Notes: generated from the letters alone by a model not told the origin. 64,000 nucleotides of DNA from Candidatus Polarisedimenticolaceae bacterium (GCA_021648685.1 JAKISI010000009.1:4-64003), one strand, 5' to 3'. Counted from the first letter of the stretch, positions 44,318 to 61,749 are shown. Numbers and translations are program-made.

Positions 44318-45323
44318 TTTGATCCAGCTCCCGTCCAAATACCCGTGGCTGGGTGTACATGTCAATCAAAGGTGTTGCCGCATTCATCAGCAGGATGGCG
44401 TACATTATCCCTTCTGGAAAGCCGCCAAAGACACGGATGAGTACAACCAGGAGCCCAATGCCAATGGCAAAGATCCAGGTTCCCTTCCGTGTGAGTGGCG
44501 AGGTAACCGGGTCAGTGGCCATAAAGATGGCACCGAGCAACATGCCGCCTGAAAAGACGGTAAAGACTGGCCCTGGATATCTATCCGCATCGACCATAAA
44601 GAGTATCAATGAGAAGATTACTGCAGTACCAATAATGCCCACTGGAATACGCCAATCAAGATCGCGTCGCCACCAGAGATAGATTCCGCCAAGAATAAGC
44701 AGCAGTCCGCTGGTCTCTCCCAGGGAACCTGATGTATTACCGAACAGCAGATCGATAAATGGGGTATCGATATGCTCAAACTTCATCATCCCCAGCGGTG
44801 AGGCTTGCGTAACCGTATCGACAACACCTGTCATCAGGGGCAGTGCAAAAAGGGATGAAGGAATGGTGAAAAAGTCCCCAGGGGCTGTCCATGTGGTCAT
44901 TGCAATCGGGAAAGTGGCCAGCAGAAAGGCACGGCCAACCAGCGCGGGGTTGAATATGTTGGCGCCCATTCCTCCCCAGATGGTCTTTCCAATACCAACA
45001 GCAACGACACCACCGAGAAAGGCCATCCACAAAGGCAGCGCAGGCGGCAGCGTAAGCCCCAGCAACCAACCCGTAAGGATGGCTGTGCCGTCACCAAGGA
45101 AATAGCCTCGTTTCTCTTCGGGGGCAAAATACCACTCGACCAGAACAGCGCCAGCAATACATGCCAGCAGCACCAGAAATGCACCCAAGCCAAAGAACCA
45201 GATGCCAGCCAGGGTGGCAGGCGTTAGCGCATACCAAACATCACGCATAACAACAGGGGTGGTCATCTGCTGCCGCAGCTGTGGCCCGGGTTGTATAAGA
45301 AGTTTTGGATCCTTTTGTGTCAC
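44310..45323 (-). CDS. rnfD: Rnf complex subunit D
   Basis: 337 aa polytopic protein. GANIFNPALVGRAFL and FMATDPVTSP motifs of RnfD/NqrB. Confidence 0.9.
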   Translation of the reverse strand: MTQKDPKLLIQPGPQLRQQMTTPVVMRDVWYALTPATLAGIWFFGLGAFLVLLACIAGAVLVEWYFAPEEKRGYFLGDGTAILTGWLLGLTLPPALPLWMAFLGGVVAVGIGKTIWGGMGANIFNPALVGRAFLLATFPIAMTTWTAPGDFFTIPSSLFALPLMTGVVDTVTQASPLGMMKFEHIDTPFIDLLFGNTSGSLGETSGLLLILGGIYLWWRRDLDWRIPVGIIGTAVIFSLILFMVDADRYPGPVFTVFSGGMLLGAIFMATDPVTSPLTRKGTWIFAIGIGLLVVLIRVFGGFPEGIMYAILLMNAATPLIDMYTQPRVFGRELDQNE

Positions 45324-46684
45324 TGAACCTTCCCCTTCATGGAACGCAGATGATCTTTAGCTGTACGAATATGTTGTACAATCGGAATGCCTGAAGGGCA
45401 CGAGTAGGTGCAACAGCCACACTCTACACAATCCATAACCTTATAGGTTTCAGCCATCTCTTCAAACATGCGCGCCTTTGCCAGACGTGCAAAACGAGCC
45501 GGATTCAGGAAATAGGGACAGGCCTCAACGCAACGACCACAACGGATGCAGTTGTACTCCTGCGGACGTCCGGTCTCATTTTCAGTCAACGCCAATACGC
45601 CTGCGCTGCCTTTGAGCATTGGCGCATCGAGATCGGCAATCGAATCACCCATCATCGGGCCGCCCAGAACCACCTGGCGTGTCTCGTCTGTGAGTCCGCC
45701 GGCATAATCCAGCACTTCGCGTATCGAGGTTCCGAGTGGCACGATCAGGTTGGCAGGATAGGAGACGCCTGGCCCCGAAACTGTAACCACACGCTCGATC
45801 AGCGGCTTGCCGGTCTGAAAATATTCGGCAATGGCGATGATGGTGCCCACGTTATTGACTGCCACCTCGACATCACGCGGCAGCTTGCCTGCTGGCACCT
45901 CAACACCGAACACGGATTTGATCAGCATCTTCTCAGCGCCCTGGGGATACTTCACCTCCAGCGGCATCACACGGATGGGCTGTCCTGGCTTGATCGCATC
46001 CTGCAACGCCTTGATCGCATCGGGCTTGTTCTTCTCGACACCAATGACGATCTCCTCTGCGCCCAGCTTCTGACGCACAATCTCTGCGCCATAGAGCAGC
46101 GCCTCCGTCTGCTCCACCATCTGGCGGTGGTCATTGGTCAGATAGGGTTCACACTCAGCGCCATTGATCAGCAGATAACGGATCTTGTTGCCATCCGGGA
46201 TGGCATATTTCACATGACACGGGAATGCAGCGCCGCCCAACCCCACGATGCCGGCCTTCTGCATCTCGCTGATGAACGCCTCAATTGAGAGCGACTCCCA
46301 GTCGATGGGGTGAACCTCCATCTGCTGCGCATCATATTGATCCGCCTCAATCACGATCGCCTCTTGAAAGGTGCCGTCAGCGTAGCGCTCTGAACCGACG
46401 CCGGTCACGCGCCCGGTGACGGGGCTGTGGAGTGCCACGGAGACAAAGCCACCCGGCTCAGCAATCATCTGACCACGCTTCACTGCATCGCCTGCCTGCA
46501 CAATCGGTTTGGCTGGCGCGCCAACATGCTGACCAAGCGGGATCACAAAGCGTTTGCCAAAAGGAAGGCGCTGGATTGCGAGTTGCTCCGTCTGCTCTTT
46601 GTGATGATGGGGAAACACCCCATGATCAAAGCTGTTACTTAATCGCCGAAATAGATTCATAGTAAAACGGTTATCAGTTGCCAC
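45320..46684 (-). CDS. rnfC: Rnf complex subunit C
   Basis: 454 aa. GLGGAAFPCHVK (NuoF-like NADH/FMN fold), an SLBB domain, and 2x[4Fe-4S] CIRCGRCVEACP / CVECGCCTYSCP. Confidence 0.9.
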   Translation of the reverse strand: MATDNRFTMNLFRRLSNSFDHGVFPHHHKEQTEQLAIQRLPFGKRFVIPLGQHVGAPAKPIVQAGDAVKRGQMIAEPGGFVSVALHSPVTGRVTGVGSERYADGTFQEAIVIEADQYDAQQMEVHPIDWESLSIEAFISEMQKAGIVGLGGAAFPCHVKYAIPDGNKIRYLLINGAECEPYLTNDHRQMVEQTEALLYGAEIVRQKLGAEEIVIGVEKNKPDAIKALQDAIKPGQPIRVMPLEVKYPQGAEKMLIKSVFGVEVPAGKLPRDVEVAVNNVGTIIAIAEYFQTGKPLIERVVTVSGPGVSYPANLIVPLGTSIREVLDYAGGLTDETRQVVLGGPMMGDSIADLDAPMLKGSAGVLALTENETGRPQEYNCIRCGRCVEACPYFLNPARFARLAKARMFEEMAETYKVMDCVECGCCTYSCPSGIPIVQHIRTAKDHLRSMKGKVQ

Positions 46685-46699
46685 ACTACAGGAGGGCGA

Positions 46700-47575
46700 T
46701 TAGCCATTCATCAGCTGAGCCATATGCTCACCCATGTCAGCCGGTGAGCGGGAGACCGTTACACCAGCCGCTTCCAGCGCAGCAATCTTATCGGTGGCAG
46801 CACCTTTGCCGCCCGAGATGATGGCCCCCGCATGTCCCATGCGACGCCCTGGAGGTGCTGTCAGACCCGCGATATAGGAGACAACCGGCTTGGTGACATT
46901 GGCCTTGATGTACTCTGCGGCCTCCTCCTCTTTACTGCCGCCGATCTCTCCCACCATGATGATCCCTTCGGTCTGCTCATCCTCCTGGAACAGCTTCAGG
47001 CAGTCGATAAAGTTCATGCCGTGAATGGGATCACCACCAATGCCGACACAGGTGGATTGCCCCAGGCCGGCCAGAGAGGTCTGACGAACCGCCTCATAGG
47101 TGAGCGTACCGGAGCGTGAGACAACACCAATCTTGCCCGGCTGGTGGATGGCTCCCGGCATGATGCCGATCTTGCATTCGCCGGGTGTGATCACACCCGG
47201 GCAGTTGGGGCCAATCAGATAGGGCTTGTTGTGGCCACGTAGCGCTGCCTTCACCTTCAGCATATCCACAACCGGAATACCCTCGGTGATGCAGACAATC
47301 ACCTTGATACCGGCATCGGCTGCTTCCAGGATGGCATCGGCTGCAAAGGCGGGCGGCACATAGATCATGCTGGCATCCGCGCCGGTTGCATCGACCGCAT
47401 CGGCCACTGTGTTGAACACCGGCCGATCCAGATGGGATTGACCACCCTTGCCGGGGGTCACGCCACCAACGATGTTGGTACCGTACGCAATGGCCTGTTC
47501 AGCATGGAATGTACCCTGCTTTCCCGTGTAACCCTGGACGACAACCTTGGTCTCTTTATTGATTAAAATACTCAT
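46700..47575 (-). CDS. sucD: Succinyl-CoA synthetase alpha subunit
   Basis: [22 protein letters not shown]...[10 protein letters not shown]...GIGGDP...RRMGHAGAI (catalytic His loop). Canonical SucD. Confidence 0.95.
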
Positions 47576-47621
47576 TTTAATATTCCTGTATCAGCATTCA
47601 GCTAAAGCCGCTAGCAGACGG

Positions 47622-47984
47622 TCAGAAGCGCTTCACAACCGTCCAGCCACTATCTTCTTTCACCATTCGTATGCTGGCCTTGCGCTTCTGGCGCTTGGCG
47701 GGGGGATAGGTTATATCCATCTCCACCCGGCAGCGATACCCCTGCTTGCCATCCACTTCGCTCCGCTTGCAGTTGAGCTTGTCGAGGGCATGGATCGTTG
47801 TTGCAACCGCAGCGCCCGCCTCTTCACCCAACATGGTCTGCGCCAGCTCATTGGCTCTCTCCATCTCGGATTGCAGCGCCTTTTTCAGATCCGCTTCCGT
47901 TGGCTCTCCTGAGCATCCTGCCAGCGCTGCTCCCAGCACTGCAATGGTGAAACCGGTAACCAGGGTCTTCAGTGATCTCCCCAT
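47622..47984 (-). CDS. Small lipoprotein inserted between sucC and sucD
   Basis: MGRSLKTLVTGFTIAVLGAALAGCSG is a textbook Sec/SPII signal with the lipobox LAGC. 120 aa, no other motif. Weak SD. Confidence 0.6.
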   Translation of the reverse strand: MGRSLKTLVTGFTIAVLGAALAGCSGEPTEADLKKALQSEMERANELAQTMLGEEAGAAVATTIHALDKLNCKRSEVDGKQGYRCRVEMDITYPPAKRQKRKASIRMVKEDSGWTVVKRF

Positions 47985-48013
47985 AACCGGCGTCGATGGT
48001 ATACAGCCGTTGG

Positions 48014-49174
48014 TCAGGCGATGGATGCGACGACCTTCTTGGCCGCATCGGTCAACCCTTCGGCAGAGATCAGGTTCAGACCACTCTGATCCAGCAGCTC
48101 CCGGCCCTGTGGCGCATTGGTACCCTCCAGCCGCACAACGACCGGGATTGAGATACCCACATCCTTCACTGCGGCGATGATCCCTTCCGCAATCAGATCA
48201 CAGCGAACGATGCCGCCGAAGATATTCACCAGAATGGCTTCCACCTTTGAATCACTCAGAATCAGTTTGAAGGCAGCCGCCACACGTTCAGCCGTGGTGC
48301 CACCACCCACATCCAGAAAGTTGGCCGGGTCACCACCGTGCAGTTTGATCAGATCCATGGTGGCCATCGCCAGACCTGCACCGTTGACCATGCAGCCGAT
48401 ATTGCCGTCCAGGGTGATGTAGTTGAGGTCATGCTTCTGCGCCTCACACTCCTGTGCGTCTTCCTGGCTCTCGTCGCGCATCTCCAGCAGATCCGGATGG
48501 CGATAGAGGGCATTGTCATCAATGTTGATCTTGCCATCCAGTGCCAGCAGATCACCATCGCCAGTCACGATCAGCGGGTTGATCTCAACCAGGCTCATAT
48601 CTTTGTCATCAAACAGTCGGTAAAGCCCCATCATGATTCGGGTCAGCGCACCAACCTGCTTCCCCTCCAGCCCCATACGAAAGGCCGCTTGGCGACACTG
48701 GTAGGGTTGCAGGCCTGCGGCCGGATCGGCACAGACGGTGACGATCTTCTCCGGTGTTGCCTCGGCAACCTCTTCAATATCCATACCGCCCGATGCCGAG
48801 GCCATGAAGACAACCCGCTCGGTTGCGCGGTCAACCACAGCACTCAGATAGAGTTCACGGTCGATATCCAGTGTCTGCTCAATCAGCACCTGGCTGACCG
48901 GCAGCTCGCGCCCGTGGGTCTGGAAGGTAGCCAGAGCGCTTCCCAACATGCGATCCGTCTCCAGCTTCAGCTCATCGATGCTTTTGACCAGCTTCACGCC
49001 ACCAGCCTTGCCTCGCCCACCAGCATGTATCTGCGCCTTGACCACCCAGGCCTCACCGCCGATGGCATTGGCCGCAGATTCAGCATCGTTTACTGAATCA
49101 ACCATCTGTCCCACAGGGATGGGGATTCCATACTCTGCGAAGAGGCCCTTCGCTTGATATTCATGTAGGTTCAT
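48014..49174 (-). CDS. sucC: Succinyl-CoA synthetase beta subunit
   Basis: [18 protein letters not shown]....[15 protein letters not shown]...[38 protein letters not shown]...[11 protein letters not shown] is near-collinear with E. coli SucC. Confidence 0.95.
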
Positions 49175-49261: not shown

Positions 49262-52200
49262 TTAATAACCTGCCAGTTTGAGCAATTGCTCACGCACATG
49301 GGCGGATGTCTCTGCCTGCGCGCCACTCTGCTGCGCACTGCTCTGTTGCTGATACTCGCTCTTCAATGCTGCCAGTGCTGCCTCATGCTCTTTTGCCAGA
49401 CGCTCCTCTGTCGCTTGAACGATGACCGCAGCAAAAGGTGTCTTGATACCCGCCAGCTCCTGCAAGGTGCACCAGCTCTGGGCACGCTCGGCAATCTCGG
49501 CGGCCAGCTCGGCATCGACACGGATGCGTTGTCTCTCACCACCCTCTTCCGGCAGCTGAATAAACGGCGTTTTCCCCTGACGCGCATCAACCTCCAGTCC
49601 CAGCCAGAGATCCAGTGCGGTTGGCGCTGGGTCTTCGCTGGTGATCGGTACAAAGCGACTCGCAAAACGGCTTTCACTCAATGCCCACTGCACGGGGGTA
49701 AACGGTGTACCATCCTCATTGGCAAGCCAGGGGGCATTCAGCTCCGGGTTCCCTTCCAGCGTGATGCGGGAGCCAAACACTCCTTCCGCAGCAGGATTAT
49801 ATCTAAATAGTGGAAAGGCACGACTGTTCAGCGCAAGCTCCGCCTGTTGCAGGGTCTGGCTTACGGAAAAACCGTGTCGCCCTGGGCTGGGAACATGCAG
49901 ATGAATCAGCGCTGGCCCTTTGTATTTAAGGGCTTCCCGTACGCTTTGACGGAGATGATCCGCTGCTGCGATAGAGCTCTGAGCCACATAGGCCACTCGC
50001 TGCGCCATCGCCATCAACCCCAGATCTGCCTTGGGATCACGCGATGATGCCACCGCAGCATCCCTCAGATCGCCACTGTCCAGGCCAAAACCCAGGTCGG
50101 CAAGCAGCAGGATCTTTACCGGCAGTCCGGATTTCAACAACCAGGCTACCTGTGAAAAACCACGCCCGGCCAGTGTCTCATCATTGCCTACCAGCAACAG
50201 CGGCGGGCAGAGCGCACGCTCCTGATCGTTCAGATCCTGCCAGCCCAGCCCATCCAGCTCATCGCGTAGCTGTTGGATGCCAGTAGGCTGGTCAAGCTCC
50301 AGTTTCGCAGCACGGAGCAGGCGCTGTGCCTCTGTTGCCTCGCGCAACTGCCCCTGCAGCAGACCGGCTGCCATCTGTGCGGTATCGCCCGTGGTGTCTA
50401 TCGCAACCGGCACCTGGAATGGGTTATTGGGGAAGACACCCGCCCAGGCTGCAACCGTGCCTGGCGCAATTGCCAGGCCAAAGCGGGAACGCCCCAACCC
50501 GGTCTCACCCTCCGCAAGCCGCCAGTGCAGCTCACCCAACGCCTTGGCCAGATCAACCAGCCGACGCAGCCGCACCGCGTTGACATTGCCCTCTTCAACC
50601 GAGGTCTCGATCTGGCTGGTCAACTCACCAACATCAACGATTCCACTCTTGAGCTGATCCAGACCCGCAGTCAGGGCATCCAGATTATCCACTGGCAGCG
50701 CGGAAGCGATCTCTTCACGGATCTGATCCTTCAGCTGTTGCAGGGTCTCTGCAATCTCCTTGGTAAAGCTGTGCAGCAGAGGCTGCTGATGATATTCCGT
50801 TGCTGCCAGCGCCATGCGGACGGCGATCTTCTCGCCCGATCCAGATTCAGCACCATCGCCACCTGCCACCGCCATGGCACAGTAGCGTGACAGCATGACC
50901 GCAGCCATTGCGCCAACCTCTGGGTTGTTACTGACTTTTTCTATAATCTCTGAAGGGGTATCGGGGGTGTTGCCCCAAATATCCCAAATCTCACGCGCCT
51001 GTTGCAGGCGTGTCGCATCCTGCTTCTCTGCCTGCATGGAGCCCGGCTCACACACGGTGATGCAGATGCCGCAGTTCTTGCAGGCATTCGGGTTGATCGC
51101 CAGCGCCAGCAGTGCGCCGCTATCCTTTTTCTCTGCTTCCAGGTCGTTAAAAAGAGGCGTGGTGACCGCAACCGGGAGTGCGCCAATCCGGGCGTTGACT
51201 GCCGCGAAGGCCTCATCCATCGCCTGTTTGCGATCCTCTGGCAGCGGCATCTTCTCTGACAGCCAGGCGTAGCCCTCTTCCAACAACGCACTTGCCGAAC
51301 CACTTTTGGCCTTTCTGGTGCGAACCTGGCTACAGATCCGCCCAGCGATTTTTGAACCAGATGGGCGCAGGGCATCGCCACCGGCAATCTTGATGCCGGC
51401 ATCGATCAGTGCCGCCGGGGTCACGGCGACCGCGCCGATGGCGCCTTCCGGGCAGCTGCTCCAGCATTTTCCACAACCTGTACACTCGGTTGGGTCAAAT
51501 GCAGGCAGCATACGGCGGGTATCACTCAGGTCACGAAAGGTCGAGGTCAGCGGCGGCAGGGTGCCGGCCGTGATATAGGGGTCGGCGGTCTGCGCGTCAG
51601 CCTCACCGTCACGGTAGAGGATGCCGACCTGATCCCAGAATCTGGGCAGGCTGTCGTGGCGCTCGTTTTTGCTCTTGAGCTGGCGCACCGCAATAGGGGT
51701 TGAATCGGTTTTAGCCACTGTGCGAGCAGGCTCATCCAGTGCCGTATAATCAATCTTTCTGATGGCCGCCATGCCGGTCTGAAAGGCGGCCAGCAGCGCA
51801 CTGCTCGTCCCACTGGGGAGGTTATCCAGCGCCTCTTCGCGAGCAGGGATAAGTCGGCGCGCCTTGACATCGACCGCCTCAGCATCCAGCAATGCCTTGA
51901 AGAGACCACCCAGCAGATGTTCGCGGGTCAGATCGGCAGCCGGAATACCTGGTACTTTGGCATCTTTACTGCGCGGCATGACCGCATAGAGGGTTAAACC
52001 TTTCTGTTTGACTGCTGCGCGAGTATCTGCTGAGAGGCCTTGCCATACTGCTTTGTCAGTACCTGCTGACAATATCATCAAGGCACCACCATCGCGCAGC
52101 TGCGTATGGGGCTTGAACAGCGGATTAGGACGTTTGGCCGCCAGAATAGAGAAGTCAACCGTGATATCGTCGCCGCTGTCCAGCAGCCCGCTCCCGGCAT

Positions 52201-53887
52201 GTGTTACCAGATCGGTACAGCAGGCACCCCAGCGCTCCCAGCTCAGGCCTGTCCGGCTGCGAAGCTCACCACCAACCAGTTGGTGCAGGTAGCTTCCCAC
52301 CTCATCCACCAGCCCCTCTCCACCCTGACCCGTCATGCGGTGCACCGCAATGGTCAGTGCTTTTTCAGGGCGCAGATCAGGTGCCGCTATGGTTGAGCGC
52401 AGACCCTGTTTGGCAATCTCAGGATAGGCACGATTCAGGTTATCCAGCAGCACCTGGCGTTTGGGGTAGCTGGTCGATCTCTGCGCAAGGTCGACTCCCA
52501 GATAGTGGCGCGAGCCATTGAGTTGTTCCAGATCCCGGCACAGCGCAATCAGATCCGCACTGCGTACCGGCTGACCACCGACACCATAGACTACGGTACG
52601 CAGCCGAGGGCGGGCCTTTTCGTCCATTGCAGGAATGCCAGGGTGGGTCTGTTCGCCATAGCGGCTGTTCTCTTGCGCCTGGTCAAAAGCAGCTCGTATC
52701 TCGCGGGTCAGTGGGGCATCACCCGCCAACGGGGTTTCCGCACGCTCCAGGACCACAACATTGGCACGGCCACGCAGCCGGCCAACAATCTCAGCAGATG
52801 GAAACGGGCGCACCGCATGGATGCCAACCACACCGACTCGCTGCCCGGTCTCTGACAGAACATGTGCGGCAACGGCCTTTGCTGTCTCAATGGCTGAACC
52901 CTGTGCCACCAATACCAGTTTTGCGTCATCCGCTGAGTAGCGGGGCCACTCTGCGCTATCCGTGCCCAATTCAAAATCGGTTACAGAGGAGTAGTCCCTG
53001 CCCGTCTGCGCGGCAAAATCTGTAATCGCCTGTTGCAGGATGGTCGGCAGATGCTGTTCAAAAAAGGCACTCTGTCCAATCGCACCCAAGGCGTAGACCT
53101 CGGCGCCCTGTAGTGCACCATGCATCACCGGGTTGTCCAGGTCATGCCAGTTCGGCACCTGGCGGCGGTGATCGCCAAACAGCATTTTTTGCGCATCGGT
53201 GGGGGTCGGGATAGCGGCATCGGATGCGCCAATAAATCGCTCTGCCAACTCTTGCGAGGCCAGCCTGACATTTTGCAGCGAACGGGCGGTCTGTTCCCCA
53301 TCCATCGCCACCACACCCGGCACCAGCGCGCGCTCAGCGACGCGACGGGCAATCAGGGTAAAGTCCACCGCCTCTTGCACGGTGGATGCCACCAGTGTGA
53401 AGGCACCGGAATCGGCGCATAGATGGATCGCCTCATGCCCCGTACCCAGCGCCGGACCCTGACCTGAGAGAGCGCTGTTTTCAAGATGTATCACCAGCGG
53501 AAGATGGCGGTTGGCAGCGGTTCGCAGCTGATCCTGAACCGCAGCAGCATCCTGCCCGGAGATAAAGGCCGTAGCCCGCCCACCCGACAGGGCAAGCCCT
53601 ATCGCGGCAGCGAGCGCACCACGTGGCCCATCTGTCTCGCAGGAGCTGATCCGCCCGCCAAAGGCGTTACTGTCACGCTGCTCTTGCTCGGATCGCCACG
53701 CTTGGTTAGCGCCGACCCCTGGAAAGCTACTGCCCAGGGCAGCGGCTCCAGAGATAGCGGCTTCGGTTACGGCAACGGCTGTATTCCCATCCAGAACGGT
53801 CTCTATCCCATCTTCCTTTGCGGCTCTCTTGGAAGAAACAAATAGGCGCCGGTACAGGCGGATGGCCATGGTATTATTACTAGGCAT
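49262..53887 (-). CDS. Giant divergent pyruvate:ferredoxin oxidoreductase (NifJ/PFOR) paralogue, 1541 aa
   Basis: PFOR domain order is recognisable: domain I (LDGNTAVA...SCETDG...FISGQ), domain III (TGQGGEGLVDEVG), two CxxCxxCxxxCP motifs (aa 802-813 and 936-948), and a domain VI-like C-terminal third (GAESGSGEKIAVR; LLVGNDETLAGRGF; FPLFRYNP). The proximal-cluster Cys are replaced and there are large insertions. Start may be Met7 (53869). Confidence 0.8.
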   Translation of the reverse strand: MPSNNTMAIRLYRRLFVSSKRAAKEDGIETVLDGNTAVAVTEAAISGAAALGSSFPGVGANQAWRSEQEQRDSNAFGGRISSCETDGPRGALAAAIGLALSGGRATAFISGQDAAAVQDQLRTAANRHLPLVIHLENSALSGQGPALGTGHEAIHLCADSGAFTLVASTVQEAVDFTLIARRVAERALVPGVVAMDGEQTARSLQNVRLASQELAERFIGASDAAIPTPTDAQKMLFGDHRRQVPNWHDLDNPVMHGALQGAEVYALGAIGQSAFFEQHLPTILQQAITDFAAQTGRDYSSVTDFELGTDSAEWPRYSADDAKLVLVAQGSAIETAKAVAAHVLSETGQRVGVVGIHAVRPFPSAEIVGRLRGRANVVVLERAETPLAGDAPLTREIRAAFDQAQENSRYGEQTHPGIPAMDEKARPRLRTVVYGVGGQPVRSADLIALCRDLEQLNGSRHYLGVDLAQRSTSYPKRQVLLDNLNRAYPEIAKQGLRSTIAAPDLRPEKALTIAVHRMTGQGGEGLVDEVGSYLHQLVGGELRSRTGLSWERWGACCTDLVTHAGSGLLDSGDDITVDFSILAAKRPNPLFKPHTQLRDGGALMILSAGTDKAVWQGLSADTRAAVKQKGLTLYAVMPRSKDAKVPGIPAADLTREHLLGGLFKALLDAEAVDVKARRLIPAREEALDNLPSGTSSALLAAFQTGMAAIRKIDYTALDEPARTVAKTDSTPIAVRQLKSKNERHDSLPRFWDQVGILYRDGEADAQTADPYITAGTLPPLTSTFRDLSDTRRMLPAFDPTECTGCGKCWSSCPEGAIGAVAVTPAALIDAGIKIAGGDALRPSGSKIAGRICSQVRTRKAKSGSASALLEEGYAWLSEKMPLPEDRKQAMDEAFAAVNARIGALPVAVTTPLFNDLEAEKKDSGALLALAINPNACKNCGICITVCEPGSMQAEKQDATRLQQAREIWDIWGNTPDTPSEIIEKVSNNPEVGAMAAVMLSRYCAMAVAGGDGAESGSGEKIAVRMALAATEYHQQPLLHSFTKEIAETLQQLKDQIREEIASALPVDNLDALTAGLDQLKSGIVDVGELTSQIETSVEEGNVNAVRLRRLVDLAKALGELHWRLAEGETGLGRSRFGLAIAPGTVAAWAGVFPNNPFQVPVAIDTTGDTAQMAAGLLQGQLREATEAQRLLRAAKLELDQPTGIQQLRDELDGLGWQDLNDQERALCPPLLLVGNDETLAGRGFSQVAWLLKSGLPVKILLLADLGFGLDSGDLRDAAVASSRDPKADLGLMAMAQRVAYVAQSSIAAADHLRQSVREALKYKGPALIHLHVPSPGRHGFSVSQTLQQAELALNSRAFPLFRYNPAAEGVFGSRITLEGNPELNAPWLANEDGTPFTPVQWALSESRFASRFVPITSEDPAPTALDLWLGLEVDARQGKTPFIQLPEEGGERQRIRVDAELAAEIAERAQSWCTLQELAGIKTPFAAVIVQATEERLAKEHEAALAALKSEYQQQSSAQQSGAQAETSAHVREQLLKLAGY

Positions 53888-54737
53888 GTCGTTTCTGGCT
53901 CTTCTCTTGGCTATGTTCTTCGAACTGGTTACCCTCCAGCCACTTTATCGCCCCGGTCGGGCAGCGGTAGGTGGCTTTTGGCTTTGCATTACCGAGATCA
54001 AAATGCACGATGGGCAGATTGTTCTCCATGACCACTACGCCCGGCTCAGCATCCAGGGCACAACGGCCACAGGCATCACAAGCTACGGTACACAGCGCCA
54101 CTGCATCATCACCAGCTAAGGGGTTGTTGCATTGAACGTAGAGTTTTTCGTTAAGCGGCAAAATCTCAAACAGATCGCGCGGACAGGCATCAACGCAGTC
54201 GCCACAGGCAGTACAGAGATCGACCTCGACCTTTGGCAGGCCATTGTCGTTCATGGTGATTGCACCGAAGGTGCAGGAGATCTCGCAGTCGGCAAGCCCC
54301 AGGCAACCCCAGGAACAGCCCTTGCCACCACCTGCAACCATATCCGCAGCCCGACAGCCATCAAAACCTTTGTACTCCGCAATCTGATGCGCTTCTGCCA
54401 CACCACCGGCACAGCGCAGCCGCGCTACCCGTTTGTTCTGCTCGCCCGCATCCACCCCGAGATATTCGGCGATGCTTTCCAGTACATCCGGGCTTGCAAC
54501 GGTGCACAGGCTTGGCTCTACCTCGCCTGAAACCAGTTTCTCAGAGAAGGCGCGACAGCCGGGTTCACCGCAGGCACCGCAGTTGGTACCCGGGAGCAAA
54601 TCTTCGGTATCGTCGATGCGTGGGTCTTCCTCTACCTTCAGGTATCGGTAGGCCACGGCAAGGACAACACCAAAGAACAGTCCCAGTCCGAGCATGATGC
54701 CCGGTGCAGAAAATAGTGTTCCGAGATCAAATGACAT
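53880..54737 (-). CDS. rnfB: Rnf complex subunit B (long, polyferredoxin form)
   Basis: N-terminal TM and a CGACGEPGCRAF motif, then several 4Fe-4S motifs (CTACGDCVDACP, CDACGRCA...). 285 aa. Confidence 0.85.
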   Translation of the reverse strand: MSFDLGTLFSAPGIMLGLGLFFGVVLAVAYRYLKVEEDPRIDDTEDLLPGTNCGACGEPGCRAFSEKLVSGEVEPSLCTVASPDVLESIAEYLGVDAGEQNKRVARLRCAGGVAEAHQIAEYKGFDGCRAADMVAGGGKGCSWGCLGLADCEISCTFGAITMNDNGLPKVEVDLCTACGDCVDACPRDLFEILPLNEKLYVQCNNPLAGDDAVALCTVACDACGRCALDAEPGVVVMENNLPIVHFDLGNAKPKATYRCPTGAIKWLEGNQFEEHSQEKSQKRHA

Positions 54738-54832: not shown

Positions 54833-57319
54833 CTAGTTGTACGCTTCTGCCCGCTTGATCAGATCATCCAGATCAGGCTCATCCGGGTTCAGAGGTTTGC
54901 CTGGATGGATGCAGTTAGCAGGACAGAACTCAGCCGACTCTACCAGTTGGGCAAAGGTTCCAGCCGTTGCATCTGCAATATAGGCCTGCTTGTTGTCGTC
55001 ATAGACGAACATCAGCGGGTTGAGATTGATACAGTCATTGCAGGTGGTGCATAGAATCGTTTCGATCCACGGATCATCGAAGCTCACCTCTTCCTCTTCA
55101 GGTTCGGGTGCCGCTTCAGGCTCAGCTGCAGCCTCTGGTTCCGCCTTTTCCGTCGATACAGCAGCAGAGGCTGTGGTTGCCACAGCCGGTGTACCGGCAG
55201 CAGGCAGTGCCGCGGAGAGATCCATTCCCACCAGCGCATTAGCCAATCGACCCAGTGCCTCGCCCGCTGTTTCGCTACGGACACGCTCCAGCTCTTCAGC
55301 CTGCTCGCTCTGCATGGCCTCAATCTCGGCAGCCGCAGCCGCTTGCGCCTCTTCACTGGCTCTCTGTACCGCCAGATCTATATAGCGGCTACGCACACCG
55401 GCCAGCTCCTGAAGAGTGCGCCAGTAGTTGCGGCGGTCACGGCAGGCTATGACCAGTGCACGGGAGATCACCAGACGCTGCATCACATCGTTACCATCCA
55501 CCGCCCAGATGAAGGGTACGCTGCTATTGGCCTGCTCTTCTGGCAGCGTCAACCACTGTGCAACTGGCACAAGATCATCTGCGCTATTTCCCTCCGTGAC
55601 CACGCCAAAGTGTGCCTTCAGGCTTGGAATCAGCAGCGCATAATCGGCAAAGGTGAAGGAGAGTTCTGAATGTACTGTGTTGCCGTCTGCATCAACATAG
55701 CTGTAGTTGTGGTTTGGCCAATCATGCTCGGCCTGCGGATTGCCGCTGAAATCCATGCGCGAGGCAAAATCATCGCCTGCATCAGGATTGATCAGAAAGG
55801 CTGGATGGGCGCGCCCTTCCAGTGCGGCACTGGCCACAAACCACGGATCAAGCGAACCGCCTTCGGATGACTTAACGCCCGTGCTGACCAGGTGCAGGCC
55901 GGTGCAGGTGGCATCAAGTGCCAAGCCGTACTGCGTCAGCAGATGCTCGTAGCGTGCCGCAGAGGACTGAGCAACCACAGCCTGGCGATGGCTGATACCG
56001 AGGTACCCAAGCTCCACACGGTAGCGCGCAAATGGATCTTCACCTTCAGCCGCAGCCGGATTACTGTGCGCCTGAACCCGCACCAGTATCTGTACCGGAC
56101 GACCGGAACTCAGCAGCTGCGAAAAGGAGCAGAGTCCGCTGGTTGCGACATTGCTGGCATTATCAATGGCAACAATGGTCGGCAGCAGCAGCAGCTCTTC
56201 CTGAGAAAAACCTTCCCAGCCAAAATTCTTGAACCAGGCATCATGGATCGCAGGCCTGTAGGCATCTCTGCTCTCCAGCCGGGCAATGCGTACCGCCGCA
56301 AAAATCTGAGCCAGTTTCTCTGCCTCTGCATCAAAGGCGGCTGCAGCTACTGCGCAGGGATCCACATCGCTGACGGATGCAAAATCAGCCGCATCGGAGA
56401 GTAGCGCCCCACCCAGTTTATCGGTGTGTACAGCACGCACCAGCACAGGATCGCTCTGATAAGATTCAAGAACCTCCAGTGCAGCTTCAACACGTTTACG
56501 TCGCGCAGCTGCCATTGATGCAGAACCCTGTGTATGGTTCATCATCTTCGACATGGCTGTAGCATTGAAATAGCCGCTTGAAACACCAATGCTCTGTTTG
56601 ATGGCGGTCGACTTCCTTGCCGCAGCTGTCTTGCCTTTTTCCACGGCCAACAGCGCTTTCAGGCTGGCGGCCAGCTGGACAATCTCCTGATGGAATGCCG
56701 CGCGGCGGGGCAGTGATTTGCAGCGCGCCACATGCAGCAGCAGATAGACCGCTGCCAGACGCCCATAGCCCAAGAACTGGCCACCCTCTTCAACGGCAGC
56801 AACCAGTTGGTTCAGGTCGGCCTGCAGACGTTCAACATGCTCACCCTTCAGGTCAAGCTGCTTCTGCAACGCCTCTGCTGCATCAGCAACCAGAGGAGCC
56901 GCATCGACCGGTGCCTCCTGGCCTTGCAATTTGCTGCACAGCTCGCGCTCGATCCAGGCAAGGTTGTCTTTGAGGATGCGCGCGCTTTCGGCAGCGGGCG
57001 CAAAACCCTCTACTACATCACCAAGAAAGCGGGAGAGCGGCTTTGCCAAAACATCACCGCCACTCTGCGCTGGGTAGAGGAACAACGGGTAGTCGTACCT
57101 GACCTTCGAAACATCCCGAAAGCTGTTGAGTGAGACGGGCAGGAACTCGCTGCTCACTTTTCCAAGTGTGGATTTAGCGCCAGGCTCACCCAGATGAAAG
57201 TGGCGCAGAGTGTTCATCAGCTCGTCAGAGGCATCAGCAGAAGCGGGGAGAAAAGGCACTCCTCCCGCGCTTCGCTCTGATTCCTGCAGCGGCTGCTTTT
57301 TACTAGCTTGTGCTGTCAT
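54833..57319 (-). CDS. 828-aa protein: unknown N-terminal region + PFOR domain-VI-like region + Ala/Glu/Pro linker + C-terminal single-cluster ferredoxin
   Basis: aa ~370-645 parallel the C-terminal third of the 1541-aa protein (ELGYLGISHRQAVVAQSS vs DLGLMAMAQRVAYVAQSS; PFIWAV...MQRLVISR...NYWRTLQELAGV vs PFIQLP...RQRIRVDA...QSWCTLQELAGI). The linker is AEPEAAAEPEAAPEPEEEE. The ferredoxin motif is CTTCNDC...CPANC (nt ~54920-55051). Confidence 0.7.
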   Translation of the reverse strand: MTAQASKKQPLQESERSAGGVPFLPASADASDELMNTLRHFHLGEPGAKSTLGKVSSEFLPVSLNSFRDVSKVRYDYPLFLYPAQSGGDVLAKPLSRFLGDVVEGFAPAAESARILKDNLAWIERELCSKLQGQEAPVDAAPLVADAAEALQKQLDLKGEHVERLQADLNQLVAAVEEGGQFLGYGRLAAVYLLLHVARCKSLPRRAAFHQEIVQLAASLKALLAVEKGKTAAARKSTAIKQSIGVSSGYFNATAMSKMMNHTQGSASMAAARRKRVEAALEVLESYQSDPVLVRAVHTDKLGGALLSDAADFASVSDVDPCAVAAAAFDAEAEKLAQIFAAVRIARLESRDAYRPAIHDAWFKNFGWEGFSQEELLLLPTIVAIDNASNVATSGLCSFSQLLSSGRPVQILVRVQAHSNPAAAEGEDPFARYRVELGYLGISHRQAVVAQSSAARYEHLLTQYGLALDATCTGLHLVSTGVKSSEGGSLDPWFVASAALEGRAHPAFLINPDAGDDFASRMDFSGNPQAEHDWPNHNYSYVDADGNTVHSELSFTFADYALLIPSLKAHFGVVTEGNSADDLVPVAQWLTLPEEQANSSVPFIWAVDGNDVMQRLVISRALVIACRDRRNYWRTLQELAGVRSRYIDLAVQRASEEAQAAAAAEIEAMQSEQAEELERVRSETAGEALGRLANALVGMDLSAALPAAGTPAVATTASAAVSTEKAEPEAAAEPEAAPEPEEEEVSFDDPWIETILCTTCNDCINLNPLMFVYDDNKQAYIADATAGTFAQLVESAEFCPANCIHPGKPLNPDEPDLDDLIKRAEAYN

Positions 57320-57343: not shown

Positions 57344-58297
57344 TTAGATCGAGAAGGAGTCAAGCGCCTTGTTAACACCGGCGATCTTCTCTTCGTCAGA
57401 CATGTCCATGCCTACGTTGCTCCAGTCGTCATAGACCGGGGCTTCCGGGTCGTGGTAGAGCAGCCCGCAGGGCACCCTGCTCTCATCACGAGCGATATTC
57501 ATGGCGCCACTCCAGTCAGACGGGTCATGCACTACCTGATTCGGGTAGATGCGTTCAACCGCCTCATTGGTCGGGATACCGTTCTCATGCTTCAGCAGCA
57601 GGATCTGGGATGGATCGTCCATCATCTCCTTATGAATATCCTCCACAAAGACCGGGCAACGCTGGATGATGCGCACAAAGCTGGTACCACGGTGGGCATG
57701 CGCCATCTTGATGGTCTCATAGACCAGCAGCGGGTTCCAATCCACAACCTGTGCCACAAATGACACGTTGGTAATGCCCAGGGTAATGGTCAGTGGATTC
57801 ATCGCCGGCAGGAAAGAGCCAGTTGGATGGGTGCTGGTTCCATAATCTTTTGGCGTGGTGGGTGAAGTCTGGTTTTTAGTCAAACCATAAATGGCATTGT
57901 CAAATACCAGAACCACCATATCAATGTTGTAACGTATGCCGTGTATCCAGTGGCAGCCGCCAATGGAGAAGCAGTCACCATCACCGGTGGAGACCCAGAC
58001 ATCCAGATCCGGGCGACGCGCCTTGATGCCAGAGGCAAAGGGCAGCGCACGACCATGCAGGCCGTGAAAGCCGTAGGTCTTCATGTAGTGCGGCAGGCGG
58101 CTTGAACAGCCGATGCCCGATACATTGACAATTTTCTCGGGCGCCAGCTGCGCCTCTCGGCACACCTTTTGCACGGCAGTCAATACACCATGGTCGCCAC
58201 AACCGGTACACCAGCGTGGCTGCGCACCTTCATAATCTTCAAGCGTAAAATAGCGGTCTTGAACGTCAAGTGACCAATCTGCTTTAAGTCCGAACAT
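57344..58297 (-). CDS. korB: 2-oxoglutarate(2-oxoacid):ferredoxin oxidoreductase beta subunit (TPP-binding)
   Basis: WCTGCGDHG, GIGCSSR and the canonical TPP motif STGDGDCFSIGGCHWIHGIRYNIDMVVLVFDNAIYGLTKNQ. Confidence 0.9.
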   Translation of the reverse strand: MFGLKADWSLDVQDRYFTLEDYEGAQPRWCTGCGDHGVLTAVQKVCREAQLAPEKIVNVSGIGCSSRLPHYMKTYGFHGLHGRALPFASGIKARRPDLDVWVSTGDGDCFSIGGCHWIHGIRYNIDMVVLVFDNAIYGLTKNQTSPTTPKDYGTSTHPTGSFLPAMNPLTITLGITNVSFVAQVVDWNPLLVYETIKMAHAHRGTSFVRIIQRCPVFVEDIHKEMMDDPSQILLLKHENGIPTNEAVERIYPNQVVHDPSDWSGAMNIARDESRVPCGLLYHDPEAPVYDDWSNVGMDMSDEEKIAGVNKALDSFSI

Positions 58298-58309: not shown

Positions 58310-60214
58310 CTAATTCAGTTTCTTCAGACGACCAAGAACGGCCTCACAAATCATTCCAGGCTGCAACGGCGCGGCCTGCACGATAGACCAGCAGTCAATA
58401 TCCAGCAGCGTATGGTGGCGCAGGATATTGGCCAGCTGGGCATAGCGGCGGGTGGCATCGGTGATCAGCGGCATATCAGGATCGTCGCTATAGTTCAGCT
58501 CAACGGTCATCACCTTCTTGAACTTGGAGAAGATCTCTTTCAGATCCTTCTCAAACGGATGCAGGAAACGCAGGTGAACATTAGAGACCTTATGACCCTC
58601 AGAACGCATACGATCCACAGCCTCCTTAACAGCCCCCATGGTGGAACCCCAGGAGACAACCAGCATGTCACCCTCTTTGTCACCATAGATCTCAGGCCGC
58701 TGCAGGGTAGCGGCAAAGGCAGCCATTTTGCGGCTGCGCATGTTACAACCGATCTGATTTGACATGGAGTCGTAGGCCACCTTACTGCGCTTGGTGTGAG
58801 CCAGTCCGGTCAGGACGTACTCACCACCAGGCTGACCTGGGATTGGCCGTGGCGACAGGCCGGTCTCATCATCCCAGTCATAGGGTGGAATATTTTTGTC
58901 CCACTCCGACTGGTCAATCGGCGCAGAGAGCCATTCGGCCTGAGGCTCTGGACGATCATAGGGTTGCACAGCGGTCGCCAGGTTGGCATCGGTCAGGATA
59001 ATGACCGGGGTGCGGAAGGCCTCGGCCAGCTTGCGCGCCGTGATCACAAAGTGGAAACACTCGGAGATGGTGGCCGGTGCCATAACGATCTTGGGTGCGT
59101 CGCCAGGCATGCTGTAGATCGCTGAGAGCAGATCACCCTGTTCGATCTTGGTCGGCTGGCCGGTTGCCGGGCCGCCACGCTGAACATTGACAACTACCAG
59201 TGGCACCTCACACATTACAGCCAGACCCAGAATCTCGGTCTTAAGTGCCATACCGGGGCCAGAGGTGACAGTAACAGCGGTTCTGCCTGCAAAGGAGGAG
59301 CCGACTGCATAGGCAACTGCCGCAATCTCATCCTCGGCCTGATGCATAAACCCGCCGGTATGGTGAAACACTTCTGATACATAGTGAGAGACAGAGGTTG
59401 CCGGAGTGATCGGATACATTGCCAGCATATCCATACCGGAAGCCAGTATACCCAGGCCAACCGCCGTGTTGCCGTTGGTCACTACCGTAGGCTTCTGTAT
59501 GCCCTCATGCTCAGGCGGAACCTCGTAATGGTATTCGAGGTTCTCAGCAGCGTACTGGTAGCCCGCCTTAAACAGCTCGTGGTTTGGCTTGATCACCTTC
59601 TCGCCCTTGCGTGCGAAGACCTTTGCAATCTCATCCAATGCACGCTGGGTATCACGACTGTAGATACGGCAGAGCATGCCAAGTACAAACATGTTCTTGC
59701 CCTGGCGGGCATTTTTAACAATCTTGAGGCACTCTTTCTCAAGCGGCAGCTCATGGATAACCAGGCCTCGCTCCTTGAAGTCAGCCAGCGCCGCCGCATA
59801 CTGCTCGCGGATTGCCGGCTGCGGATCATCTGCCCATTTGTTCTCCAGCAGAACCACCGTGCCCTTGCGGAAAGCACCATTTACGATGCGGTTGTAGAGC
59901 ACCTGCTCGTTCAGGGCGACAACCAGATCTGCCTGGTCGCCCATGTTGGTGACATATTTGGAACCCAGACGGATGCGAACACCACTGGCACCCTCCTGCG
60001 AACGGGCAGGCGGCTGAATCTCAGCGGGGATGATCTCCACTGTCCAGACGCCGTTCCCCATCTTGCCACTAACGATGCCAAAGGTTTGTCCACACTTCTG
60101 GGCACCTTCGCCAGAGTCACTGACAACCTCAATGATATGCTCTTCAATACGCTTTGGTTTTCCTGCGGAAATCTCAGCGACATTGCTTTTTTGCGCTGTT
60201 GCTTGTTTAGTCAT
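58310..60214 (-). CDS. korA: 2-oxoglutarate(2-oxoacid):ferredoxin oxidoreductase alpha subunit (gamma-alpha fusion)
   Basis: 634 aa. N-terminal gamma-like domain (SDSGEGAQKCG), then an alpha domain (GNTAVGLGILASGMDMLAMYPITPAT...QAEDEIAAV...TSGPGM). Confidence 0.9.
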   Translation of the reverse strand: MTKQATAQKSNVAEISAGKPKRIEEHIIEVVSDSGEGAQKCGQTFGIVSGKMGNGVWTVEIIPAEIQPPARSQEGASGVRIRLGSKYVTNMGDQADLVVALNEQVLYNRIVNGAFRKGTVVLLENKWADDPQPAIREQYAAALADFKERGLVIHELPLEKECLKIVKNARQGKNMFVLGMLCRIYSRDTQRALDEIAKVFARKGEKVIKPNHELFKAGYQYAAENLEYHYEVPPEHEGIQKPTVVTNGNTAVGLGILASGMDMLAMYPITPATSVSHYVSEVFHHTGGFMHQAEDEIAAVAYAVGSSFAGRTAVTVTSGPGMALKTEILGLAVMCEVPLVVVNVQRGGPATGQPTKIEQGDLLSAIYSMPGDAPKIVMAPATISECFHFVITARKLAEAFRTPVIILTDANLATAVQPYDRPEPQAEWLSAPIDQSEWDKNIPPYDWDDETGLSPRPIPGQPGGEYVLTGLAHTKRSKVAYDSMSNQIGCNMRSRKMAAFAATLQRPEIYGDKEGDMLVVSWGSTMGAVKEAVDRMRSEGHKVSNVHLRFLHPFEKDLKEIFSKFKKVMTVELNYSDDPDMPLITDATRRYAQLANILRHHTLLDIDCWSIVQAAPLQPGMICEAVLGRLKKLN

Positions 60215-60501: not shown

Positions 60502-61749
60502 CTACCGTCTGAGCGCCTGCTCATACTCATCCTTGAAATGGAAGAGTGAACTCTCCAGCACCTTTACTGCACCATCCAGCAGATGGCAGCGCCCACTGCC
60601 CGGCAGGATCTCACATAGATTTTCCAGCGAATCAAGGTCGGCCTGCCGCCCCTGGCCTGTATCAATCTTGCCCAGCAGCTGAGATATATAGTAAGTACCT
60701 GTCTTACAAGGGGGACACTGACCACAGGAGGAGTGGGCAAAGAAATCAACATACTCTGAAACCCGCTTGACAATGCCGGTTCCTTCAGAGATTACAATCA
60801 TCGCCCCGGTTCCCAGGCTGGAGCGGCGCGCCCGTACCGAGTCAAAATCCAGCGGCACATCCAGATCCCTCGGGGTCAGGATGGTATTGGATGGGCCGCC
60901 GGTAAATACCGCCTTCAGTTTTTTTCCCAGCAATACACCACCACCGTAGGTGTAGATCAGATCCTTCAGCGGCGTACCCATCGGCAGCTCGTAGGAGCCG
61001 GGTTTCAGCACATCGCCACTCAGACAGAAGATCTTGGTACCACTCGCTTTGCCAATACCCTGATCCTTAAACCACTGCGCACCATTACGCACCAGATGGG
61101 GGATATTGGCCATGGTCTCCATATTGTTAACCAGTGTGGGACAGCCATGCACACCATGCTGGGCAGGATACGGCGGCTTGCCACGCGGGAAGGGGAATTT
61201 TCCTTCCACCGACTCAATGGCCGCAGTCTCTTCACCGCCAATATAGTGGCCGGAGCTTTCCACCACCTGATACTTCAGCGCTCTTTTCAACACCACAGCC
61301 GCCTTGTCCACAAGCCCAGACGCTTGCCACTGCGTCACTGCGGTACGCATCGCGTCTATGCCACCATCAAGATCGGGGTTGATGTAAAAAACAATTTGGT
61401 TGATTCCGGTCGCCAGCGCGGTAATCGTCGCCCCTTCAATGATCTGATGCGGCGTCTCTTCCAGCAGTGTGCGATCCTTAAAGGTGCCGGGTTCATCTTC
61501 ATTGCCATTGCAGATCAGATATTTCTCTTTTGCCTCTTTCTGCTGCGCAACCGCTGCCCACTTGATATGCACCGGGAAGCCGCTCCCACCCAAGCCGGGC
61601 AGCTGCGCCTCCTTTATCAGCGCAACCAATCGGGAAGGATCTTGCAGTGCAACCTGCAACCCCTCTCCACCCACATGCGCAAGCCACGCATCGAGATCGG
61701 CGCCCACTCTGTTTTTGGGATGCAGTAAGACCTGATTCAATTTTTCCAT
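60502..61749 (-). CDS. Stand-alone NuoF-like protein (FMN/NADH-binding, SLBB, [4Fe-4S])
   Basis: GLGGSGFPVHIKW, YLICNGNEDEPGTFKDR, GHYIGGEETAAIESVEG, and SCGQCPPCKTG...RCHLLDG parallel the complex I 51-kDa subunit motifs. No nuoE/nuoG neighbours in the window. Confidence 0.8.
   Translation of the reverse strand: MEKLNQVLLHPKNRVGADLDAWLAHVGGEGLQVALQDPSRLVALIKEAQLPGLGGSGFPVHIKWAAVAQQKEAKEKYLICNGNEDEPGTFKDRTLLEETPHQIIEGATITALATGINQIVFYINPDLDGGIDAMRTAVTQWQASGLVDKAAVVLKRALKYQVVESSGHYIGGEETAAIESVEGKFPFPRGKPPYPAQHGVHGCPTLVNNMETMANIPHLVRNGAQWFKDQGIGKASGTKIFCLSGDVLKPGSYELPMGTPLKDLIYTYGGGVLLGKKLKAVFTGGPSNTILTPRDLDVPLDFDSVRARRSSLGTGAMIVISEGTGIVKRVSEYVDFFAHSSCGQCPPCKTGTYYISQLLGKIDTGQGRQADLDSLENLCEILPGSGRCHLLDGAVKVLESSLFHFKDEYEQALRR

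Follow-up and report, generated by a model that had tools for sequence, protein, structure and literature searches.

A predicted PFOR-derived pseudoenzyme with a tethered ferredoxin, encoded beside korAB, as a probable electron carrier of the KorAB oxidoreductase

A 64,000-nucleotide stretch from Candidatus Polarisedimenticolaceae bacterium (GCA_021648685.1, JAKISI010000009.1:4-64003), referred to here as the window, carries a minus-strand operon of roughly 19 kb in which the genes of KorAB, a two-subunit 2-oxoacid:ferredoxin oxidoreductase (OFOR), are found together with those of the Rnf complex. An earlier note on this DNA had reported, without naming the strand, a protein of 828 amino acids encoded between korB and rnfB. 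This gene is present as an ATG-started open reading frame (ORF) on the minus strand, and same-length close homologues align over 100% of its product. The protein is called T828 in this text, and the neighbouring 1541-residue protein resembling pyruvate:ferredoxin oxidoreductase (PFOR) is called P1541. T828 reads as a conserved, non-catalytic pseudoenzyme derived from the C-terminal half of PFOR, and is probably the built-in electron carrier of KorAB, which is read as a 2-oxoglutarate:ferredoxin oxidoreductase (OGOR). The gene and the parts of its product are as follows.

54833..57319, minus strand: T828, the gene under study, stop codon included
56330..57202, minus strand: residues 40-330, what remains of the domain IV/V junction of PFOR ('FRD...DYPLFL'; its Fe-S motif is lost), with a helical insert
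55226..56329, minus strand: residues 331-698, a core like PFOR domains VI/VII, without thiamine pyrophosphate (TPP) motif or cluster cysteines
55073..55225, minus strand: residues 699-749, a flexible Ala/Glu/Pro-rich tether, predicted to be disordered
54833..55072, minus strand: residues 750-828 and the stop codon, a predicted single-cluster [4Fe-4S]-type ferredoxin domain (CxxCxxC...CP)

The relationship of T828 to PFOR is seen most clearly through its neighbour. The earlier note had recognised homology between the middle of T828 (residues ~370-645) and the C-terminal third of P1541, and had found the first ~330 residues to resemble nothing familiar. The similarity is real, and its extent is greater than was thought. 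BLASTP aligns residues 363-672 with residues 1211-1511 of P1541 (28% identity, E 1e-24), a region that includes the shared strings pointed out in that note, and alignment of the two family profiles with hhalign makes columns 40-713 of T828 collinear with residues 749-1541 of P1541 (probability 100%, E 5.9e-52). The first ~330 residues, once held to be unrecognisable, are therefore PFOR-like too. Residues 40-330 align with P1541 ~749-1210 and are, as judged from the profiles, homologous to a stretch of it that runs from the domain IV/V junction and takes in a helical insert, which is specific to the family and common to both proteins.

P1541 in turn matches domain VI of the M. thermoacetica PFOR 6cin (domain i-E 1.8e-9). 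No PFOR was found among the Protein Data Bank (PDB) sequences matched by T828 or by its 100-member family profile, which comprised only ferredoxin I and designed helical repeats, the latter being low-complexity matches. The link to PFOR rests on the paralogue and on the predicted fold because these direct searches returned no PFOR. An AlphaFold2 model built from the family alignment (mean pLDDT 90.6, pTM 0.81) has a helical N-terminal part (residues 40-330, mostly helical, pLDDT >90), an alpha/beta core closed by a long helix (residues 645-698), disorder at residues 699-745, and a well-folded C-terminal domain. When this model was compared with the PDB by Foldseek, it matched M. thermoacetica PFOR (6cin, E 1.6e-6, ~437 aligned columns), PorB (9bt4_C, E 4.9e-6), the beta subunit of oxalate oxidoreductase (5exd_F, E 2.3e-5), the beta subunit of the Sulfolobus OFOR (StOFOR; 5b47_B, E 2.1e-3), and that of the Magnetococcus OGOR (MmOGOR; 6n2n_B, E 1.0e-2). 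The similarity of the middle region to PFOR domain VI that the earlier note had expected is thus found by way of P1541 and of Foldseek, and T828 is, by homology and by its modelled fold, a member of the PFOR/OFOR structural superfamily.

The body of T828 lies outside every Pfam and NCBIfam model, and Fer4_13 is the only Pfam family found on the protein. An NCBIfam match to IglI was dismissed (18.8 bits against a cut-off of 100). T828 matches no Rnf family in either collection, and the six Rnf subunits are encoded separately in the operon. Full-length relatives of 1260-1370 residues have PFOR domains I and II ahead of a complete T828-like region and ferredoxin, and T828 is therefore an N-terminally truncated form of a full-length dead PFOR.

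The positions of the cofactor ligands were read from a MAFFT alignment that included a canonical PFOR, YdbK of E. coli; counts refer to family alignments of 100 members for T828 and 37 for P1541. Opposite the first CxxCxxCxxxCP motif of domain V, which is present in YdbK and P1541, T828 reads 'AQSGGD', and it has deletions in place of the second domain-V cluster motif and of the proximal-cluster CSGC. For the GGDGW of YdbK, AIDNA is found in T828, and ETGER, ETALR or IESGE in its relatives. In the family, the column of the GDG aspartate is occupied by Glu in 44 members, by Asp in 16 and by other residues in 40; it is flanked by Ala, Val or Leu, not by glycines, and is followed by no conserved Asn. 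The fourth proximal cysteine is gone, its position reading 'KSSEGG', 'PTWNG' and similar, and outside the ferredoxin no column has Cys in at least 60% of members except C626, at 74%. Domains I-III are absent from T828 itself, and in full-length relatives (P0210 and others) the position aligned with the catalytic glutamate is not Glu. T828 therefore has none of the features of a functional PFOR/OFOR catalytic subunit, neither the TPP motif nor the proximal cluster nor domain I with its glutamate. The earlier observation that a GDG-type motif and proximal-cluster cysteines are missing holds, and neither is conserved in the family.

The C-terminal tail, in which the earlier note had seen a single-cluster ferredoxin on a low-complexity Ala/Glu/Pro-rich linker, was read correctly. 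Most of residues 699-745 have pLDDT <50, and across the family the linker is 42-72 residues long (median 52) and consists of 24% Ala, 15% Glu and 14% Pro; it varies in sequence, yet is kept as a feature of the family. Pfam finds Fer4_13 at residues 756-805, above the cut-off (26.1 bits against 24.5, E 1.4e-5). The four cysteines C757, C760, C763 and C799 are invariant, and P800, which follows the last of them, is invariant or nearly so. The matching PDB sequence is D. africanus ferredoxin I (1dax/1fxr), and the modelled domain superimposes on 1fxr_A with a TM-score of 0.84 and a root-mean-square deviation of 0.9 over 58 columns (Foldseek). The tail is accordingly assigned, from sequence and model, to the Fer4_13 ferredoxins of the D. 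africanus ferredoxin I type; its cluster, putatively of the 4Fe rather than the 3Fe type, is predicted. In one full-length family member, P0178 (1565 residues), the C-terminus is made up of two tandem linker-ferredoxin units, not of a single one.

The family is large. When 1.8 billion representative proteins were searched, 2040 representative clusters matched at E<1e-3; at the stricter E<1e-30 there were 913, and these span several phyla. The ratio of nonsynonymous to synonymous substitution rates (dN/dS), calculated for T828 against six orthologues of 74-86% identity, is 0.07-0.10 for the whole gene. By region it is 0.08-0.13 in the N-terminal part, 0.06-0.10 in the core, 0.11-0.22 in the linker, the least constrained part, and 0.02-0.065 in the ferredoxin, so that the cofactor-less body as a whole lies at 0.06-0.13. 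T828 is under purifying selection and is not a relic.

P1541, too, appears to have lost its active site. The catalytic Glu of domain I is found in none of the 37 family members; in 36 its place is taken by Pro, Gly or Ala. At the proximal cluster, cysteines 1, 2 and 4 are Glu, Ser and Ser, respectively, in all 37; the Asn that binds Mg and diphosphate is Leu in 33; and the GDG motif is degenerate, reading G-N-D-E. In the two domain-V clusters, none of the eight cysteines varies. By its sequence, P1541 is probably a pseudoenzyme that has kept a two-cluster relay. An insert of ~110 residues lies between the two domain-V clusters. The P1541 sequence is shared, at 100% identity, with a protein from a 'Candidatus Polarisedimenticolaceae' MAG (metagenome-assembled genome).

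The other genes of the operon are listed below in the order of transcription.

60502..61749, minus strand: NuoF-like flavoprotein gene, stand-alone, first in the operon (Pfam Complex1_51K, SLBB, NADH_4Fe-4S)
58310..60214, minus strand: korA, alpha subunit with domains III-I-II (NCBIfam OAFO_sf, 505.7 bits, above the cut-off; Pfam POR, POR_N, PFOR_II)
57344..58297, minus strand: korB, beta subunit of the two-subunit OFOR (Pfam TPP_enzyme_C; NCBIfam PorB_KorB)
53880..54737, minus strand: rnfB, membrane-anchored polyferredoxin subunit of Rnf (Pfam FeS and Fer4 families; NCBIfam rnfB models)
49262..53887, minus strand: P1541, predicted full-length dead PFOR paralogue with both domain-V [4Fe-4S] motifs
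42345..49174, minus strand: sucC, sucD, rnfC, rnfD, rnfG, rnfE and rnfA, the remainder of the operon (Pfam, NCBIfam; synteny conserved across loci)

T828 is separated from korB by 24 nt and from rnfB by 95 nt, while the 3' end of rnfB overlaps the start of the P1541 gene by 8 nt, which suggests translational coupling. KorB has its cysteine motifs and GDG...N in place, that is, the full set of motifs expected in an active OFOR beta subunit with a single cluster, and its best PDB matches are 5b46_B and 6n2n_B; on sequence grounds it is an intact subunit of this kind. No delta-type ferredoxin subunit accompanies KorAB in the operon, as judged from Pfam and NCBIfam. RnfB scores 74.6 bits with the NCBIfam subfamily model TIGR01944 (cut-off 68.7) and has a hydrophobic N-terminal helix and several Cys motifs. 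It is of the long polyferredoxin type (285 residues), not of the short gammaproteobacterial RsxB type, and its gene is separated from rnfCDGEA (42345-46684) by the P1541 gene and sucCD. The product of the NuoF-like gene has an FMN/NADH site and a 4Fe-4S motif and is encoded without a NuoE partner; the gene is kept upstream of korA in gammaproteobacterial loci. A 161-residue ORF upstream of it (61884-62369, minus strand) was considered as a NuoE-like or ferredoxin gene and rejected, since it has no Pfam match and is the antisense shadow of a plus-strand gene for a 538-residue ABC-F-type ATPase (61923-63539). The apparent conservation of this ORF across loci in tblastn is due to the ATPase gene that underlies it. 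The operon promoter should lie within 61750-61922.

Conservation of the gene neighbourhood was examined at 95 loci, comprising 12 genome loci, 80 metagenome loci (found with the family profile) and 3 contigs (found by exact protein look-up). They were annotated by tblastn with the proteins of the window, and counts were limited to loci with informative flanks. The genome locus nearest to the window belongs to a Sedimenticola metagenome-assembled genome (MAG). KorB lies directly upstream of the T828-type gene, on the same strand, at 66 of the 70 loci with enough upstream sequence, and this adjacency is seen in MAGs of Gammaproteobacteria, Deltaproteobacteria and Alphaproteobacteria. RnfB lies directly downstream at 63 of 79 informative loci, and in most cases a P1541-type gene and then rnfCDGEA come next. 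The full order korB-T828-rnfB occurs in Gammaproteobacteria (Sedimenticola, Woeseiaceae and Ectothiorhodospiraceae MAGs) and in one Deltaproteobacteria MAG.

At the other 16 loci, neither rnfB nor the large paralogue is found within 1.5-10 kb of the T828-type gene. The earlier note had held that a wide occurrence of the gene without the large paralogue would speak against its proposal; such an occurrence is seen in part, at these loci. They form two groups. In the first, the proteins are ~50% identical to T828 and the cluster is rearranged: L018-L024, L027 and L028 have no rnfB or P1541 downstream, and in several of them korB and T828 are 1.3-3.3 kb apart, with other sequence in the gap. A further locus, L030, has a P1541-type gene upstream, on the other strand. 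The second group is a distant, large subfamily of ~750 residues, whose operon consists of genes for PyrK/NfnA-like and GltD/NfnB-like proteins, korA, korB and the T828-like gene; the genes beyond it are unrelated. Two loci illustrate this arrangement.

L093, 3447-11271: nfnA-like (DHODB_Fe-S_bind), nfnB-like (Fer4_20 and Pyr_redox_2), korA, korB, T828-like
L096, 4559-12250: the same five genes in the same order

Neither has Rnf or P1541 within 10 kb; L096 has a canonical PFOR of 1189 residues a few genes upstream. T828-type genes occur with korAB and without rnfB or P1541 within 9-10 kb at L020, L023, L088, L093 and L096. KorAB is therefore the constant partner of T828; the variable one is a machine for electron exchange between ferredoxin and NAD(P)H.

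Some loci depart from these patterns. In a Gemmatimonadota MAG (L011, 6599-11659), the linker and ferredoxin are fused to the C-terminus of a P1541-type protein of 1686 residues, and there is no separate T828 after korB. A shorter ORF between korB and rnfB of this locus (4563-5744) shows a weak match to residues 299-399 of T828 (E 0.045), which is a hint that the arrangement may be an alternative split of the T828 and P1541 parts. At L013, a full-length T828-type gene (1310 residues) and a P1541-type gene (1193 residues) lie on either side of rnfB. The korAB cluster of L013 is preceded, at 1565-3010, by apbE, encoding the flavin transferase needed for Rnf flavinylation, and by a hemerythrin-like gene that may serve in oxygen sensing or protection. 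A 1619-residue ORF at L080 was considered as a KorB-T828 fusion of the Rosetta-stone type and rejected, since its frame differs from that of KorB and Pfam finds only Fer4_13 in it.

The gene and its cluster are already known from work on tubeworm symbionts, where the gene is labelled 'por-like'. In the symbiont of Escarpia laminata, the cluster reads gltA, ferredoxin, frdx*, nuoF*, korA, korB, por-like, rnfB, por, sucC, sucD (Rubin-Blum et al. 2019, supplementary tables, PMC6315080). The por-like gene is the orthologue of T828, 'por' is the label given to P1541, and nuoF* denotes the NuoF-like gene. Transcript levels in this symbiont, as log transcripts per million, are 2.64 for por-like, 2.98 for korB and 2.37 for 'por', the level of por-like being near those of korA and korB (PMC6315080 supplement). 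In Endoriftia, a 'PFOR-like' gene is co-regulated with the dimeric korAB (Mitchell et al. 2024, PMC11636981). The protein itself was analysed in neither of these studies, and searches of the literature turned up nothing relevant on an Rnf-OGOR supercomplex, on a link between KorAB and RnfB, or on a dead PFOR described before. Compared with the searchable papers, the anatomy of T828, the dead status of T828 and P1541, and the korAB-centred synteny appear to be new. Current annotations of T828-type genes are 'ferredoxin', 'pyruvate decarboxylase' or 'por-like'.

A strongly conserved body free of cofactor motifs, a tethered ferredoxin, a fixed place after OFOR genes that have no ferredoxin subunit, and the presence in the operon of an NAD(P)H machine linked to ferredoxin together lead to a reading in which T828 docks and its ferredoxin swings. 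Our confidence in it is evenly balanced: T828 would be a non-catalytic scaffold whose swinging ferredoxin serves KorAB and links it to ferredoxin reductases of the Rnf or Nfn type. The body would dock on KorAB, and the tethered ferredoxin would move between the single cluster of KorB and the co-encoded machine that reduces or oxidises ferredoxin. In the window, the route would be Rnf, by way of RnfB and the two relay clusters of P1541; in the distant subfamily, the partner would be the NfnAB-like NAD(P)H flavoprotein. KorAB would in this way have a private, channelled supply of low-potential electrons. The reaction proposed to be served is succinyl-CoA + CO2 + 2 e- -> 2-oxoglutarate, or its reverse, because sucCD is present in the same operon.

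P1541 might pair with T828 through the ancestral dimer interface of PFOR, an idea for which the pair of genes at L013 was counted, and it is attractive to think that such a heterodimer would physically join KorAB to Rnf. In its most developed form, this proposal is possible, if doubtful: the heterodimer would be a bridge that bolts KorAB onto Rnf through RnfB, and electrons from NADH, driven by the ion gradient, would pass through the RnfB clusters, the P1541 relay clusters and the T828 ferredoxin to KorB. If the bridge exists, it would make up an ion-gradient-driven, CO2-fixing supercomplex with no need for soluble ferredoxin, and the Nfn-linked subfamily would be its soluble, bifurcation-driven counterpart.

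Several points weigh against the proposal of a scaffold with a swinging carrier. Neither genetic link is absolute, since rnfB is missing at 16 of 79 loci and a nearby korB at 4 of 70, and the docking of the body on KorAB is read from gene order alone. A scaffold role poorly explains why ~700 residues are held at a dN/dS of ~0.08 with many near-invariant motifs, among them R503, W633, 'ELGYLG.SHR' and 'FTFADFALL'; these could represent a ligand site rather than protein interfaces. In Endoriftia, the 'PFOR-like' gene and korAB(3) are down under H2S-limited and O2-limited conditions in which the reductive tricarboxylic acid (rTCA) cluster is up (PMC11636981). Electrons could flow in either direction, in the service of the reductive or of the oxidative TCA cycle.

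Two other explanations were weighed. T828 might be a protective, assembly or regulatory partner of KorAB, its body binding KorAB or a metabolite (CoA, succinyl-CoA or 2-oxoglutarate) in order to shield the oxygen-sensitive cluster, aid assembly or gate activity, with the ferredoxin as a sensor of redox state or oxygen and not as the main carrier. This would agree with the tight linkage to korAB, with the strong conservation of the body, whose many near-invariant polar and aromatic residues resemble those of a ligand pocket, and with the hosts, which are, as judged by source names, sulfur oxidisers at oxic-anoxic interfaces. The domain VI/VII region of canonical PFOR aids CoA binding and, in D. 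africanus, has a part in oxygen protection. However, a tether of conserved length and a ferredoxin with a dN/dS of 0.02-0.065 suit a shuttling carrier better than a static sensor, and the fact that the operons consistently encode an NAD(P)H machine linked to ferredoxin, be it Rnf or Nfn-like, points to electron flow through the ferredoxin; we regard a protective, assembly or regulatory role as unlikely. It is improbable that T828 is a still-catalytic enzyme with a new, TPP-independent chemistry on the old PFOR fold, with its own ferredoxin as the electron acceptor. The body is held by purifying selection of the strength usual for enzymes, and the invariant R503, W633 and G641 could form an active site with the conserved H359, H444 and H505, but no cofactor-binding motif of a known kind was found in Pfam, NCBIfam and PDB sequence searches, and no cluster inside the body would connect such a site with the tethered ferredoxin. 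In addition, domains I-III are dispensable here and present elsewhere, which is unusual for an active site located at domain interfaces.

The earlier note had offered two ideas centred on the neighbours: that T828 is an adaptor docking the oxidoreductases to Rnf, or that it supplies a mobile cluster in place of the missing relay cluster of P1541. In the form weighed here, the adaptor would dock onto RnfB, and the mobile cluster would replace the lost proximal cluster so that P1541 could work as a pyruvate synthase. The gene order speaks for them, with rnfB after T828 at 63 of 79 loci and P1541 after rnfB, as do the loss of the proximal-cluster cysteines from P1541 while its two domain-V clusters are kept, and the fusion of linker and ferredoxin to the P1541-type protein of L011. 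The idea of a complementing cluster is weakened by P1541 itself: Glu stands at the catalytic position in 0 of 37 members, Leu replaces the Mg-binding Asn in 33 of 37, and the GDG is degenerate, so that a relay cluster would have no plausible TPP site on which to act. As for the adaptor, the adjacency to rnfB fits, but T828 is found beside KorB more constantly (66 of 70), and at the five loci named above korAB accompanies T828 with no rnfB or P1541 within 9-10 kb. An Rnf-centred role, in either form, appears quite unlikely. Finally, the loss of all catalytic motifs and of the N-terminal domains could be taken to mean that T828 is an evolutionary relic, a decaying duplicate of its PFOR-like neighbour. 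We give this next to no credence: it is effectively refuted by a dN/dS of 0.07-0.10, the 913 clusters in several phyla, the conserved position in the operon and the transcription of a relative.

T828 bears on how electrons of about -500 mV are supplied to KorAB in microoxic cells. Two-subunit KorAB is widespread in sulfur-oxidising Gammaproteobacteria, including the symbionts of tubeworms, clams and lucinids and the giant sulfur bacteria, and the gene that stands almost always beside korAB encodes neither a plain ferredoxin nor a PFOR. The cluster is also a concrete candidate for a hard-wired electron channel from Rnf, or from Nfn, to OGOR. The neighbour has consequences of its own. A published rTCA reconstruction counts the P1541-type gene ('por') as the pyruvate synthase step (PMC6315080 supplement); as P1541 lacks the residues for TPP catalysis, this reading comes into question, and if P1541 is indeed a dead enzyme, metabolic models of tubeworm and related symbionts will need another pyruvate synthase.

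Among known systems, the nearest to T828 is PFOR itself (D. africanus 1b0p, M. thermoacetica 6cin, E. coli YdbK), whose domains V-VI-VII are predicted to have the same core fold and whose homology with T828, traced through P1541, is collinear from the IV/V junction to the C-terminus. T828 differs in having no TPP motif, proximal cluster or domain-V clusters and, in the lineage of the window, no domains I-III. It has in addition a helical insert of ~200 residues, a long C-terminal helix, the Ala/Glu/Pro linker and the appended single-cluster ferredoxin. P1541 is paralogous to T828 over residues 40-713 of the latter, and shares with it the helical insert, the 'W.TLQELAG' C-terminal region, the loss of the TPP site and proximal cluster, and the operon. 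Unlike T828, P1541 has kept domains I-III together with the two [4Fe-4S] motifs of domain V; in the lineage of the window it lacks a tethered ferredoxin, and it is placed after rnfB, which it overlaps by 8 nt, whereas T828 is placed after korB.

The role proposed for T828 is that of the delta subunits (PorD/KorD/OorD) of four-subunit OFORs, which form an Fe-S module between the beta-subunit cluster and external partners and, like T828, are encoded with the oxidoreductase genes. The two are not homologous: delta subunits are small, rigidly bound, two-cluster ferredoxins, while T828 has one cluster on a long tether and a 700-residue dead-enzyme body. A parallel to the suggested movement, by analogy only, is the lipoyl swinging arm of 2-oxoacid dehydrogenase E2, in which a small carrier is held to a structural core by a linker rich in Ala, Pro and Glu. 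There is again no homology, and the carrier of T828 would be an Fe-S ferredoxin, not a lipoyl-lysine domain. A last comparison is with KorABC of Azoarcus evansii, an NADP-dependent 2-oxoglutarate oxidoreductase whose KorC is a flavoprotein resembling ferredoxin:NADP reductase. There too, in keeping with the idea put forward for T828, the operon of a two-subunit KorAB also encodes a link to the pyridine-nucleotide pool; as described, KorC is set apart from T828 in that the link is a flavoprotein and not a dead PFOR with a ferredoxin.

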